Position numbers and translations under genes: made by a program. A stretch of DNA of 64,000 nt from a virus (Duplodnaviria; Caudoviricetes). The notes beneath the pieces were generated by a model. It was not told the DNA's origin. It made no database searches and saw only the letters and a program-made list of their open reading frames with translations. This document shows, in pieces, positions 56,199-61,566 of the stretch. Each line of letters opens with the position of its first letter. The first letter of the stretch is position 1. The stretch is from positions 2,420 through 66,419 of IMG/VR virus record IMGVR_UViG_2891785506_000002, one strand, 5' to 3'.

Positions 56199-57761
56199 TT
56201 ATTCATCGTAAACAAAACCTTCATTACCAGTTTCCACGTTCATGTCGCAAACCACCGGAACCGGACTCATCAAAGCATCCTGCGTCAACCCGTAAACCTT
56301 GTAATACACGGTTCCACCCACTTTCCTTTTATTATTCTTCCCGAAACCTAAATCCCGCAAGTGAGCCGCCAAAGTCTGCTTGCTCACCATCGGGAAACCG
56401 TTCTCCTCGGCATACCTCTCGATATCCTTGTACATGACCGAGAAATCAATCTCGCACCAAGAGTCATTCCTAACACCCTGCCGGGGCAAAGCGAAACATC
56501 CCCTCGCCATAGCCCACGACTTCCCTAGAGCCGATAACCCCATCTCCGTTATCTTTTTCCTTATACATCCCTCGCTCTCTGGAAACTTGAATTTATTCTT
56601 CTTCAAAAGAACCGCTCCCCTTCGTATCCAATTCAAAATACCCGGGTATTCCTTCATCAAATCGTGAGTCAATTGCAAATTCTGCTTTTTCTCGTCTATA
56701 ATCCGGTCAAAAACGATAAAAATAAACCTCCTGAAAAATCCAAAACTACTATCATTACCCGATGGGAACCTGTTAGCGTTGAAGATAAAATAGGGTATAT
56801 TCGTGATTTTGAAAGCATCATTACCTATCCTTCTCCCAAGCTGAGGTTCTCCGGATATCAAACTCTTGGCAGCATCCTCTTTCCCCGCGAAAGTCCTTGA
56901 CTCAACCTCCCCGCTCCAGTTAAATATCTTACCGTCTATCTGCGACAAATTCCTCTGCCTCTCGTCACCACCTCTCAATAACGCCTCCATGCTCAAATTG
57001 GATATATTCTCCCCTCCAAACACTCCCGTCACCGTATCCATGATAACACTCTTACCATTACTCCCATTACCGAACAAGACCAAGCTATTCTCCACCTTCT
57101 TGTCCATCGTACCCCTGTCATACAACCCCAAACCAAGAAACATTTGTAGTATAGCCCTGTCATTCTTGTCCGGCAAAACTCCTCCGGAATACTTGCCCAA
57201 ACCAACACACCTCCCCCTTAAAAACTCTTTCCACATCGGGCAATCTGCTGAAGGATCATAATCGTAGCCATGAAGGTAAACAACATGATGATCTTTGCTA
57301 AAAGGCATCAATACCCCGTCACTCATGTCTACAACACCGTTATTGAATGCCATCAAGTTAAAGCGAGGCTTCAACATCCTGTTATTATTCAACGCCTGAT
57401 AAGCCTCCTTGATAATATTATCGAGCGACTTCAATATAAAGTCAACTGGAACATGAACCTTGCCCAAGAATAACTTGATAGCCCTCCGGAAACAAGAGGT
57501 ACTCGGGATAGGCTCGTATACCTTGCCCGTGAAAAACCATATACCACCCTTGTACCTCCCAAACCCACTCCTCGAGATCGTTTTATAAACCGCCTCCGTC
57601 ACTTTATACAAGTTCTCGTAATAAACCCTCTGGTACTCCTTCGACGTCGGAGAACTCGTTATATCATAATCGTATTTCCCCGAACTTTCGTACAGGTTTT
57701 GTACCATATTGTCAATTAACCCGTTATCTACATCGTAATTCATAAAATATACACAAAACAA
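56199..57761 (-). CDS. D5/P4-primase-family SF3 helicase
   Basis: AFNNGVVD, YDYDP.ADCP.W..FL (D5_N), Walker A GNGSNGKS, FFRRFIFI.F. Confidence 0.88.
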   Translation of the reverse strand: MFCVYFMNYDVDNGLIDNMVQNLYESSGKYDYDITSSPTSKEYQRVYYENLYKVTEAVYKTISRSGFGRYKGGIWFFTGKVYEPIPSTSCFRRAIKLFLGKVHVPVDFILKSLDNIIKEAYQALNNNRMLKPRFNLMAFNNGVVDMSDGVLMPFSKDHHVVYLHGYDYDPSADCPMWKEFLRGRCVGLGKYSGGVLPDKNDRAILQMFLGLGLYDRGTMDKKVENSLVLFGNGSNGKSVIMDTVTGVFGGENISNLSMEALLRGGDERQRNLSQIDGKIFNWSGEVESRTFAGKEDAAKSLISGEPQLGRRIGNDAFKITNIPYFIFNANRFPSGNDSSFGFFRRFIFIVFDRIIDEKKQNLQLTHDLMKEYPGILNWIRRGAVLLKKNKFKFPESEGCIRKKITEMGLSALGKSWAMARGCFALPRQGVRNDSWCEIDFSVMYKDIERYAEENGFPMVSKQTLAAHLRDLGFGKNNKRKVGGTVYYKVYGLTQDALMSPVPVVCDMNVETGNEGFVYDE

Positions 57762-58819
57762 AAATTCTTACTCCCCTTTGATAAGATCAAATATCTTTAT
57801 TCAATTTATTTATTACACCACAAATATAACGTATATTTTATACAAATCAAAATATATAAATACTTACACACAATATATTATATGAATCAATTAAAGTATT
57901 ACTTCATATATATTTTTATACACGAAATGATACAAAACACGGAGAAAACAAAGTTGTTAATTTTCGTTTGGCAATGTAAACAATGATGACACTAAAAAAT
58001 AAGAAAAAAAATTTTTAGATGGGGTGAATAGCCCCGTTTCTCGTTATCTCGCAGGGGGGGGAGGGTACAGTATATTATATGTATAATATTCAAAATTAAA
58101 ATTATACACATATATGTACTAGCGTGTTATGTTTGCGCATTCGTGAATATTTTATGTACTTTTAGATATTTACAGGTGTTGTTTTAGACACTTTTTAGTC
58201 ACTTTGATAGACTGAAAACACATCGACGATAAAAGAGATTGAATCGAGGTAATCCATCCTTATATCTTCCTATATCATTATTCACGCCTTACATGCGTAT
58301 ATTATTGTTATACTCTTTGCATTGTGGAATGTTTGTAGATGTATTGCTTTATTATCCCGATGGAATGCTATAAATTACACATCTGATGCTGGCTATACAT
58401 TGTTGTGTATTATATTATCATTGTGTTATAATATTTGCCAAAAATAAGTGTTAAAATATCATTGATTTGGCATGTATGAAATAATTTAGAATGGTTCAAG
58501 ATAACCTTTCCCTCGTACGCTTAATTGTGTCGTGTTATAGGGCACTTATTACGAATGGTATCCGGTCTTATCTTTATAAAAATAGTGCGAATGGTGGTAT
58601 TTATTTGATTATACGTTTAAAATACGGTGTTATTGCATGGCATATATTTCTATACAACTGTATATCAATCAAATAACCATTAAAATATTTTGCTATTTTG
58701 CTACATTGTAGTATCTTTAAGTATAGAACAAAAGGAGATAACAAAATAGTTACTCTTTCGCCGGTCTTAAAGTTGTTCGCCGGTATATAAACAGGAAGCT
58801 TCGAACCGAATAAAGGTTG

Positions 58820-58883
58820 TATATCTTAATGCGGCTGCCATTGGTAACGGTTCCAAGCCCGTGATAACGCAGAGGAAGATATA
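58820..58883 (+). ncRNA. Twister ribozyme (type P1)
   Basis: P1 TATATCT/AGATATA, UAA, P2 TGCG/CGCA, P3 TGCC/GGTA, P4 ACGG/CCGT, L4 TTCCAAGC; pseudoknots TCC/GGA and GC/GC. Predicted cut U58827^A58828. Confidence 0.88.
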
Positions 58884-58949
58884 ATAAAAAAGGGGCAATG
58901 AAGCCCCGAACGTTACCGGCGTATTCCGGTAAACAAAATCCGTACTAAT

Positions 58950-59012
58950 ATGGAACTGACAATTTGTATTAGAGTTTGGAAAGTAAAGCTAACGATTAGC
59001 GTAAAGCTTTAA
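58950..59012 (+). CDS. 20-aa small ORF inside a long-range stem
   Basis: MELTICIRVWKVKLTISVKL; flanked by AAAATCCGT/ACGGATTTT. Confidence 0.4.
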   Translation: MELTICIRVWKVKLTISVKL

Positions 59013-59067
59013 TTCCAAAACCCCGGGTAAAACCGGGGACGGATTTTTGCAAATATACGAAATAATC

Positions 59068-59241
59068 ATGAAAACGTACACGAAAGCACAATTAATTAAA
59101 TCGGCTGTAAAAATGGGTTGCAATCCCTTGGAAGCCACCAATCGAATAAACAAAACTTATAACTATTACGTGACTTATAGAAGTGACTACAATTTGAAAA
59201 AAGCGGCTCATTATTGCATGTATATAGCACCTTGTAACTAA
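59068..59241 (+). CDS. Small hypothetical protein
   Basis: Likely start is ATG 59068 (MKTYTKAQLIK...). Confidence 0.55.
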   Translation: MKTYTKAQLIKSAVKMGCNPLEATNRINKTYNYYVTYRSDYNLKKAAHYCMYIAPCN

Positions 59242-59242
59242 T

Positions 59243-59286
59243 TCCCCGAACGGTTTACGCCCTTGGTTCGATTCCTGGGCGGGGAC
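59243..59286 (+). ncRNA. tRNA-minihelix-like element (acceptor-like stem + T-arm)
   Basis: TCCCCG/CGGGGA stem stacked on a stem with a TTCGATT loop. Confidence 0.45.
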
Positions 59287-59316: not shown

Positions 59317-60486
59317 ATGAAACACTTTAAAAACATTAGCAGCATTGCGGAATTGAAAAAAGAGTATCGCAAACTAGCCCTAGCGAATCACCCGGACAAA
59401 GGAGGTAACACCGAGGTAATGCAAGAAATAAACGTTGAATTTGACGTACTTTTCAAGATCTGGAAAAACGAACCATCAAAAGATGATGAAGTAGAAACAG
59501 CAACGAGTGAAACAGCTAGCGAGTACCGGAGGAACTTTTACACGTCTAATGGTTGGGAAGGTAGCCGTTACGATTTTAGCTTAAGCACGAAAGACATTGC
59601 CGCCAGGGTAAGAGAATACGTTAAAATACAGTGGTCAGGATGGAAATTTAGCGTGCGTTGCAAATACGCGTCCATGTGTTCCGAAATCGTAGTTTATCTC
59701 AAGGGCGGACCGGTGGCAGATCCGCTATCTAGTGAAGGGAGAGAAAAAGGATATTATAACCCGCAAATCTCATACATGAAGGAAGAAGATAGTCGGTTAA
59801 ACGATCTAGTGAATGCCGTTATGCTGGACGTGAACGCCTATATAGACAGTTTCCGGTACGACGATAGCGACGGAATGATAGACTATTTCGATACCAATTT
59901 CTACAAGTTCGTTGAGGTCCGCTCGTCCGATTGGGAGGAAATACACAAAACAGCACGGGTGAAAGAAGCTAAAAAAGGGGTAATGGTTAGTGAGGATCAC
60001 GAGGAAGAAACGAACACGGTAACGGTTGAAGATATAGAAATCATCGATTACTCGGAAAAAGCGGTCGCTGTGTTTGGCAACACGAAAGCTATAAAAGAAG
60101 ATTTAAAACAGTTGGGAGGACGATTTAACCCGGCTTTGAAGTACGACGGCGGGAAGCGTGCCGGGTGGGTATTCTCGAAAAGTAAGCGCGAAGCACTGGT
60201 AAGCCTGTTAAAAGGGATTGACATGGACGAAAAGCCCAACGAGGGAAACGATATACAGTTAATTCCCAGCAGCCGAGAAGAACGCGCGAAAATGGATACC
60301 GTTGCTTTCACGGATTTTATCTCGTGTATTCAGAGAATAGCGATCGAAAACGGGTATTTACACGCTAGAAATCACGTGAAAGAAAAGCTAAAAAACTACT
60401 ATATGAAATTCGTGCAATTGAAATATATTGCCGTTATGCTGGCGGAATACAAGAAGAGGAGCAGTAATAACACGATGGCAGCTTAA
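59317..60486 (+). CDS. J-domain (DnaJ-like) multidomain 'polyvalent' protein
   Basis: ELKKEYRKLALANHPDKGG...MQEIN..F (J-domain with HPD); middle LPD29-like region (DIAARVR.YVK..W..WKFSVR); C-terminal YSEKAVAVFG.TK.IKE.LK.LGGRFN domain. Confidence 0.7.
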   Translation: MKHFKNISSIAELKKEYRKLALANHPDKGGNTEVMQEINVEFDVLFKIWKNEPSKDDEVETATSETASEYRRNFYTSNGWEGSRYDFSLSTKDIAARVREYVKIQWSGWKFSVRCKYASMCSEIVVYLKGGPVADPLSSEGREKGYYNPQISYMKEEDSRLNDLVNAVMLDVNAYIDSFRYDDSDGMIDYFDTNFYKFVEVRSSDWEEIHKTARVKEAKKGVMVSEDHEEETNTVTVEDIEIIDYSEKAVAVFGNTKAIKEDLKQLGGRFNPALKYDGGKRAGWVFSKSKREALVSLLKGIDMDEKPNEGNDIQLIPSSREERAKMDTVAFTDFISCIQRIAIENGYLHARNHVKEKLKNYYMKFVQLKYIAVMLAEYKKRSSNNTMAA

Positions 60487-60515
60487 TTTTAATAATAACC
60501 ACCCTTTGTTTGTAA

Positions 60516-60586
60516 GCCGTCCTGGCGGCATTAAATAGCTTTTAAGCCGGGAGCGTCCCGACCAGATTTGCCCGGTCGGGGGTAAG
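60516..60586 (+). ncRNA. Pistol ribozyme
   Basis: P1 GCCG/CGGC; loop TCCTGG pairs with CCGGGA (pseudoknot); conserved TTAAATAG and GCGT; P3 CCCGACC/GGTCGGG; P2 CTT/AAG. Predicted cut G60582^U60583. Confidence 0.88.
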
Positions 60587-60603
60587 AATTAAATTTTAAT
60601 ATC

Positions 60604-61566
60604 ATGGAAACAATTAAAGACACTGGAAATATAAATAGTGCTCTGTTTAACAATGGAGTGAGCGACCATACTATTATTGGTATGATAAATTCGGGGATGC
60701 TACCGGAAGAGATTAACGATATAGACGTTTTTAAGCGAGAATGGCGTAAAACATTCACGGGTAGTTTTTTGCTTAAATACCCGAGGTATTACGGGATAAT
60801 CAATACAATACGACGGATAGTTGGACGCCTCCCGGAATGGGATGATTTCACGAGGCAAAATATACGGGATATCTCGGAATACTTTAAAAATAATTGTTGC
60901 GGTAGTTCGGCACGGACATACACGGCTATGATCCGTTCCGTGCTGAATTATAACAGGGAAATAGCCAATATCCCGTGCAAAGATTTCGAGAACGAGTTAA
61001 GGGTGAAAAACGAGCCGCACGTGGCGATATACTTGACGGTGGACGAACTGTGCAAACTGGAAAGATTCAAGCCGGAAAACGAACGGGAAGAGGTTATTTT
61101 AGCGCAATTCCTTGTCGGATGTTATACCGGAGCCAGGCATTCGGATATCTTGTGCATGAACGAGGATAATATACAAGGAAAATATATAACCTACGTTAGC
61201 AAGAAAACGAAAATTCCGGCAACGATAGAACTGAAAAAAGGCCTTCCCAAGTTACTGGAAATAGCCGTTACCCGGGAGTATGCCGAATCTACTTTTAACG
61301 ACACGATAAAAGATATATGCCGGAAAGCGGGGATTGATAGTAAAGTGAAGGTTTTTAAAGCCGGGAAAAGCTTGACTGGGCACAAGTACCAGTTTGTTAG
61401 CAGCCACACTGCTAGACGGTCGTTTGCTTCCAATTTGGCAATTCTTGGAGTTCCCATCCGGGAAATACAATTGAGAATGGGTCATAGCAGTACAACCATG
61501 ACCGAGCGTTATATTTTGGCTCCGGTGAATAAATTACCCGAGTCAGCGAGAGAGTATTTCAAGTAA
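60604..61566 (+). CDS. Tyrosine recombinase (second, no arm-binding domain)
   Basis: YTGARHSD, KKTK, SSHTARRSFA, MGHSS..MTERY: R-K-H-R-H-Y catalytic set. Confidence 0.92.
   Translation: METIKDTGNINSALFNNGVSDHTIIGMINSGMLPEEINDIDVFKREWRKTFTGSFLLKYPRYYGIINTIRRIVGRLPEWDDFTRQNIRDISEYFKNNCCGSSARTYTAMIRSVLNYNREIANIPCKDFENELRVKNEPHVAIYLTVDELCKLERFKPENEREEVILAQFLVGCYTGARHSDILCMNEDNIQGKYITYVSKKTKIPATIELKKGLPKLLEIAVTREYAESTFNDTIKDICRKAGIDSKVKVFKAGKSLTGHKYQFVSSHTARRSFASNLAILGVPIREIQLRMGHSSTTMTERYILAPVNKLPESAREYFK

Follow-up and report, generated by a model that had tools for sequence, protein, structure and literature searches.

Self-cleaving ribozymes leave a 2′,3′-cyclic phosphate on the 5′ fragment and a 5′-OH on the 3′ fragment, and the 3′ fragment of a twister can still fold into both pseudoknots and bury its 5′ end (PMC8782182). 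In the solved twisters of O. sativa and env22 the scissile bond is a U-A step, and the two pseudoknots, T1 and T2, are formed by L4 paired with L1 and L2 (PMC6154101). Bacterial ribozyme classes cluster near each other and near phage genes, an association which led to the discovery of pistol, and what purpose small ribozymes such as twister and pistol serve in bacteria and phages remains largely elusive (PMC6765202). The glmS ribozyme is a self-cleaver of a 5′ leader that leaves a 5′-OH on the coding RNA and alters the fate of this product (PMC6765202). The twister described here would share with glmS the place in a 5′ leader and the 5′-OH on a coding RNA, while it belongs to another fold family and gives no sign of a ligand requirement.

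The element lies in a window of 64,000 nucleotides (64 kb), the whole stretch of DNA that was analysed, which makes up most of a 66.4-kb IMG/VR provirus record with an estimated completeness of 95%. Judged by its sequence, it is a complete type-P1 twister and an ordinary member of this well-known RNA family. We put at roughly 85% the probability that it is a functional twister in the 5′ leader of a rightward transcript from the divergent region between a primase gene and a J-domain gene. Its parts, in positions of the window, are the following:

58820–58883, plus strand: type-P1 twister ribozyme (RF03160 match, MFE fold, pairing across 51 distinct phage twisters)
58820–58826 (UAUAUCU) with 58877–58883 (AGAUAUA), plus strand: P1, 7 bp, AU-rich
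58827/58828, plus strand: scissile step U58827^A58828 within UUAA, with the active-site loop UAA
58830–58833 (UGCG) with 58868–58871 (CGCA), plus strand: P2
58834–58835 (G58834 C58835) with 58857–58858 (G58857 C58858), plus strand: pseudoknot T2, the GC after P2 with a GC in L4
58836–58839 with 58843–58846, plus strand: P3, 4 bp, UGCC/GGUA round a triloop
58847–58849 with 58860–58862, plus strand: P4, ACG/CGU, closing the loop GUUCCAAGCC
58852–58854 (U58852 C58853 C58854) with 58874–58876 (G58874 G58875 A58876), plus strand: pseudoknot T1, the 5′ part of L4 with the strand between P2 and P1

Read along the sequence, the 64-base element has all its parts in the correct order and register, and every element that the earlier note had listed, with its pairing, was found again at the same coordinates. 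In the covariance-model alignment and the MFE fold, P1, P2 and P4 are present with internal loops and the RNA ends in P1, which is what structurally defines type P1. Compared with the RF03160 family (structures reviewed in PMC6154101), the element agrees in connectivity, in ending in P1, in the U-A scissile step, in P2 and P4, in T1 and T2 and in the L4 loop GU(Y)CCAAGCC, and it has the optional P3, as most annotated twisters do. It differs in the outer pair of T1, which is U-A against C-G in the consensus, in its minimal P3 (4 bp and a triloop) and in having no P0. The cleavage at U58827^A58828 that the note had proposed is in register with the family, since U58827-A58828 stands opposite U5-A6 of the model in the cmscan alignment and the scissile bond is a U-A step in the solved twisters; G58872 stands opposite the conserved G after P2. 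The stems P1 to P4 are also reproduced by a plain MFE fold. The stability of that fold is close to that of shuffled sequences (z −0.65) and so uninformative as evidence for a twister, as would be expected of a small fold relying on pseudoknots that the folding program cannot model.

The search against the Rfam twister-P1 model that had been suggested as a check gave a full-length match. With cmscan in E-value mode, model positions 1–68 of RF03160 were aligned to 58823–58880 at 53.5 bits, with an E-value of 1.7e-11 over 301 nt and of 3.6e-9 over both strands of the whole 64-kb window. The gathering threshold of the family is 67.2 bits, so that a default gathering scan skips the element and only the permissive mode shows it. 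All six other phage twisters compared fall below this threshold as well, at 56–64 bits, and in 13 further twister-bearing phage loci the gathering scan listed no twister; over L003, L026, L049, L091, L014, L189 and these 13 loci, the RF03160 scores are 51–64 bits, all under 67.2. The value of 67.2 is a curation cut-off and no structural criterion, and it is not diagnostic for phage copies. Therefore the sub-threshold score carries little weight against the twister, because every phage twister scored is likewise below 67.2, and phage twisters are systematically under-reported by default Rfam annotation pipelines. Hammerhead, hatchet, twister-sister and HDV-like ribozymes gave no match at E <= 1 in the whole 64-kb window.

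The pairing was followed across other phages. At least 116 stretches of IMG/VR matched a pattern search, and when pair counts were restricted to the matches with twister loop context, the outer pair of T1 was U..A in 57, C..G in 38, U..G in one and C..A in none. An alignment of the window element with 50 other distinct phage twisters was then scored on the full structure, both pseudoknots included. All six helices pair, with 85.8% of the cells paired against 69.4% in shuffles (0 of 500 shuffles as high), and pairing falls to 28–43% once the partners are slid; the covariation score is 0.393, against 0.136 in shuffles. The T1 helix is 100% paired across the 51 distinct twisters, with an outer pair of U-A (27), C-G (23) or U-G (1). 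Covariation is likewise seen in the outer pair of P4 (C-G 24, A-U 21) and the inner pair of P2 (A-U 31, G-C 17), and the combination found in the window is an allowed one in both. The window element has 27 of the 27 invariant columns, several of which are fixed by the search pattern, so that evidence comes solely from the variable pairs; the positions of T2 are invariant, which the pattern partly imposed. The earlier note had read TCC/GGA in place of CCC/GGG as a compensatory change, and the counts bear this out, with U..A and C..G both frequent and C..A absent. Phage twisters carry U-A and C-G at this place about equally often, so that the U-A form of T1 is an everyday natural variant and no peculiarity of this element.

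The phage itself appears to be temperate and of Bacteroidales type, to judge from its terminase, its integrase domains and a promoter motif. The large terminase shares 60% identity with its counterparts in the Bacteroides phages LoVEphage and BI-TP1 and the Phocaeicola phage PV4-TP1, and the integrase at the right end carries Bacteroidetes-type Arm-DNA-bind_5 and SAM_5 domains. The motif TTTG-N17-23-TAnnTTTG occurs eight times in the window against 2.6 expected, a count reached in none of 100 shuffles. The twister is situated within a 1.3-kb AT-rich divergent intergenic region, on the same strand as all the genes downstream of it. The surroundings are these:

56199–57761, minus strand: primase/helicase gene (D5_N and DUF5906, by Pfam/PHROG), the left border of the divergent region
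57821–57851, minus strand: full Bacteroidetes-type promoter motif, from the motif scan
58689–58719, plus strand: putative rightward promoter, with TTTG at 58689–58692 and again at 58697–58700 and the −7-like box TATCTTTA at 58712–58719
59069–59241, plus strand: 57-codon ORF, the first gene after a terminator-like hairpin
59317–60486, plus strand: J-domain/LPD29 gene (Pfam LPD29 1.6e-11; DnaJ 1.3e-5, below the DnaJ cut-off)
60515–60587, plus strand: pistol ribozyme RF02679 (61.9 bits against a gathering threshold of 34.5, model positions 1–68)
60604–61566, plus strand: tyrosine recombinase/integrase gene (Pfam Phage_integrase 4.9e-12; PHROG 1 integrase 1.2e-22)

The candidate rightward promoter was placed by alignment to the syntenic relative L177. 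Its TATCTTTA box has one mismatch to the Bacteroidetes TAnnTTTG motif and is aligned opposite a perfect TATATTTG box of L177, equally far from a shared TATATCAATC block. If transcription began near 58725–58730, about 100 nt of leader would precede the twister. The rightward string then consists of the 57-codon ORF, which has no Pfam or PHROG match, the J-domain/LPD29 gene, the pistol, the tyrosine recombinase and an HU gene. The twister had been described in the earlier note as the head of the right-hand operon. The shared strand of the downstream genes agrees with this description, whereas the position at the head depends on the putative promoter, and a module ending in a terminator (58935–59047) intervenes between the ribozyme and the first sizeable gene.

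Three other features of this region were observed. A conserved block in the divergent region is composed of AAAATTTTTAGATG, about 35 nt, a run of 8–11 G and (T)AGGGT (58008–58066; L177:4166–4232, minus strand), and it possibly serves as an origin or in regulation. A tRNA-like minihelix with the T-loop motif GGUUCGAUUCC occupies 59243–59285 on the plus strand, in the gap that follows the 57-codon ORF and precedes the J-domain gene; neither ARAGORN nor Rfam recognises it, and its fold is weak (z −1.0). The segment with the 5′ strand of twister P1 and the cleavage site, AAAGGTTGTATATCTTAATG (58813–58832), is closely similar to the promoter segment AAAGTTGTTGTATATTTGTAATG of L177 (L177:3628–3650, minus strand), and the positional homologue of that L177 promoter is located 100 nt upstream of AAAGGTTGTATATCTTAATG in the window. 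The similarity may go back to a duplication where the element was inserted, or be a coincidence in AT-rich DNA.

Directly behind the twister, a structured leader is found, with the following components:

58885–58907, minus strand: GC hairpin 58892–58907 and A-run, terminator-like, followed by T6 on the minus strand (terminator scan)
58913–58932, plus strand: second leader hairpin, UUACCGG/CCGGUAA (MFE fold)
58935–59047, plus strand: conserved structured RNA module of 113 nt, closing stem 58935–58943/59039–59047
58945–58972, plus strand: hairpin A of the module, a 10-bp hairpin that sequesters an AUG
58950–59012, plus strand: predicted 20-codon ORF MELTICIRVWKVKLTISVKL, inside the module
58975–59019, plus strand: hairpin B of the module, in two parts
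59021–59038, plus strand: GC hairpin C of the module and then a U-run, terminator-like (plus-strand terminator scan)
59050–59057, minus strand: perfect TAnnTTTG box TATATTTG, without a −33 TTTG, pointing through the module towards the minus-strand terminator 58907–58885

From the end of the twister it is 1 nt to the A-run, 2 nt to the 58885–58907 element and 8 nt to the hairpin 58892–58907. The stretch 58884–59050 has an MFE of −62.3 kcal/mol against −35.9 +/- 3.7 kcal/mol in shuffles (z −7.2). Independent folds of five divergent loci (window 58884–59060, L014:2988–3215, L125:3478–3662, L167:3586–3765 and L177:3372–3575 on the minus strand) give one and the same arrangement of four helices, with helix sequences that differ. 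The A-run and its hairpin occupy the same position in all five distinct loci, and the equivalent of the second leader hairpin keeps its pairing in relatives despite changes on both sides. The small ORFs of L014, L125, L167 and L177–L180 have 20–21 codons, with M1, W10 and K13 invariant and conservative changes elsewhere, and the predicted peptide is amphipathic and basic with no clear membrane helix. No Rfam family matches the module; the peptide motif occurs no further in 1.68 Mb of phage loci, where looser peptide patterns brought nothing new, and an exact-pattern scan of IMG/VR for the small-ORF module found L014 only. A minus-strand TAnnTTTG box stands just 3′ of the module in 4 of the 5 distinct loci. 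From this box and the terminator, one would expect a convergent antisense transcript of about 150 nt that stops a few nucleotides short of the twister.

The type I toxin-antitoxin (TA) loci hok/sok and tisB/istR-1 have structured, self-silenced toxin mRNAs and cis-antisense RNAs, and in the known type I TA systems the mRNA is processed by host RNases, with no ribozyme involved. In its layout, the module resembles such a locus or a leader-peptide attenuator. The features in common with hok/sok and tisB/istR-1 are a tiny ORF, a buried start, a long-range closing stem, a convergent putative antisense promoter and terminators on both strands. It differs from them in that the peptide cannot clearly be called a membrane helix, and processing would be by a ribozyme and not by host RNases.

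On this basis, the twister could be a dedicated 5′-processing switch for a small-ORF/antisense module of the type I TA kind and not a general trimmer at the head of an operon, its cleavage making an inert primary transcript competent for translation or for pairing with the antisense RNA. The end of the twister directly adjoins the A-run and the hairpin that form the minus-strand terminator, the module is extremely structured with its AUG buried in a 10-bp hairpin, and four to five divergent loci share the fold, the 20–21-codon ORF and, on the antisense strand, the terminator and the TAnnTTTG box. We nevertheless regard this explanation as unlikely. No ribozyme adjoins the modules of L014, L125, L167 and the L177 group, the twister of L014 being 2 kb downstream, and a module of which 4 of 5 distinct versions are without an adjacent ribozyme works without the twister. 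Moreover, the 20-residue peptide shows no obvious membrane helix, and the antisense box is without a −33 element. Quite unlikely, too, is the fuller form of the idea, in which the twister would be the processing enzyme of a TA-like or attenuator-like switch and the balance of cleaved sense RNA and antisense RNA would gate expression of the J-domain, pistol and recombinase genes. If this form were true, the gated genes would bear on lysogeny, and a definite regulatory task could be assigned to a bacterial twister, with the twister-less relatives as natural controls.

The flanks of other phage twisters bear on a second alternative. The 40 nt upstream of 74 distinct IMG/VR twisters (L002–L117) fold with a median of −13.7 kcal/mol, and 54% of them reach −12 kcal/mol or lower, while the medians are −3.95 kcal/mol for the downstream flank and −6.1 kcal/mol for random windows. 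The upstream hairpin of most phage twisters is probably the optional P0, and after cleavage it would stand close to the new 3′ end of the 5′ product. At the window twister this layout is reversed, with −4.6 kcal/mol upstream and −13.0 kcal/mol downstream. Its P1 has 7 bp, against the 3–5 bp usual in phage twisters, and none of the 74 distinct IMG/VR twisters is followed by a hairpin and a small ORF in this way. In its core, the element is close to other phage copies: that of the unrelated gut phage Phass-1 (OQ749652; 56.2 bits with RF03160) is 88% identical, and L026, L049, L091 and Phass-1 all have a near-identical core with the U-A variant of T1 and an intergenic place in gene arms of non-structural function, on their coding strand. 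Most phage twisters come after a strong hairpin and before unstructured RNA, and others stand in tRNA arrays (L026, Phass-1) or in tandem (L049), whereas the window twister would lie in a promoter-proximal leader, directly before a hairpin and a structured module.

Some arrangements in these loci were observed in passing. Three twisters follow each other in tandem in L049 (935–1972, plus strand), about 450–550 nt apart. In Phass-1 (L188:2501–2549) and in L026, small ORFs flank an unannotated twister that lies within a long tRNA array. A type II hammerhead lies in L006 (4061–4131, plus strand), 1.4 kb from the twister and on the same strand.

The second alternative is an insulator or 3′-end former, which would cut read-through from the 1.3-kb AT-rich region before it enters the recombinase operon. 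Promoter-like boxes do occur far upstream on the plus strand, such as TATGTTTG at 58128, and it has been suggested that bacterial ribozymes split polycistronic RNAs into pieces of differing stability (PMC6765202). However, the stable hairpin that would protect a new 3′ end, present upstream of 54% of the phage twisters, is missing here (−4.6 against the median of −13.7 kcal/mol), so the upstream product looks unprotected, and nothing is coding upstream on the plus strand. The probability of this function is low as well.

The pistol ribozyme is the only ribozyme listed by a default Rfam gathering scan of the window. It shares the strand of the twister, follows it at a distance of about 1.6–1.7 kb and precedes the start codon of the recombinase gene by 17 nt. 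A twister and a pistol about 1.6 kb apart beside integrase and phage genes fit the published ribozyme-ribozyme association (Weinberg et al., reviewed in PMC6765202). Pistol is known mainly from Firmicutes (PMC6154101), and the present case differs in that the phage seems, by terminase similarity and promoter motif, to be of Bacteroidales type. A pistol alongside a twister was found in none of 13 other phage loci examined, a small sample.

Eight IMG/VR loci carry a primase 69% identical to that of the window. The order of primase, divergent region, LPD29 gene and recombinase is common to the two relatives compared in detail, and in the syntenic relatives the position of the pistol is filled by a 47-codon ORF (L177:1567–1710). 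Six of the eight loci were scanned and gave no match to any Rfam family at E <= 0.01, L014 and L177 have no pistol, and LoVEphage and BI-TP1 have neither twister nor pistol. The related locus L014 does carry a twister, 2 kb farther down the same operon and flanked by small genes, a placement that points to mobility of ribozymes within this gene arm. Both ribozymes are accessory in this phage lineage, and since the twister is not kept in position among relatives, it is dispensable for this type of phage.

A gene-specific link between the twister and the J-domain/LPD29 gene was considered as well and was rejected, with twister-P1 found in 0 of 50 phage records bearing a homologue at E <= 0.001. 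In 19 of these J-domain/LPD29 loci, the sole ribozyme was one hammerhead II. A type II hammerhead is seen at L119:2545–2609 (plus strand), downstream of a J-domain/LPD29 homologue.

An absence from the syntenic relatives and from the LoVEphage-type phages, by which the twister is not essential, and a score below the Rfam cut-off are also what a decayed, catalytically dead relic of a past insertion would show. Such a relic is very unlikely here, as the invariant positions are all intact, all helices pair, the 7-bp P1 is kept, the sole deviation from the Rfam consensus is doubly compensated and the score is less than 3 bits under the lowest of the six other phage twisters (56–64 bits). A chance resemblance in AT-rich intergenic DNA, in favour of which the sub-threshold Rfam score and nothing else can be named, is effectively refuted by the full-length match with its E-value of 3.6e-9 for the whole window and by the 88%-identical core in an unrelated phage.

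The preferred reading is thus a functional twister in the leader of the rightward transcript, and its action may be pictured as follows. The leader would be transcribed rightward, and P1, P2, P3 and P4 would fold co-transcriptionally and be locked by T1 and T2. The 2′-OH of U58827 would then attack its own phosphate, with the cut at 58827/58828. A leader fragment of about 100 nt with a 2′,3′-cyclic phosphate end would be released, held only by the AU-rich 7-bp P1. The downstream RNA would begin at A58828 with a 5′-OH and would carry nearly the whole ribozyme fold as a 5′ cap, as the earlier note had proposed, a sound inference by analogy with the published behaviour of the twister 3′ fragment (PMC8782182). 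From there it would run into the structured module and, by read-through, into the J-domain/LPD29 gene, the pistol and the recombinase gene. The most likely role would be a constitutive trimming of the 5′ end, which would detach the module and operon RNA from the upstream transcript and leave it with a structured 5′ end that is defined and carries no phosphate, and this end may set stability or translatability.

The locus is new in no kind, yet it is a tidy test case for the role of phage ribozymes. It belongs to what appears to be a temperate Bacteroidales-type phage related to the cultivable LoVEphage-like and BI-TP1-like phages, with a probable promoter-proximal leader twister and a pistol just before the recombinase gene, and it has syntenic relatives with the same genes and the same leader module and without both ribozymes. 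A comparison of RNA ends, half-lives and lysogeny between such relatives, or between wild-type and dead alleles, could reveal the purpose of the cut.
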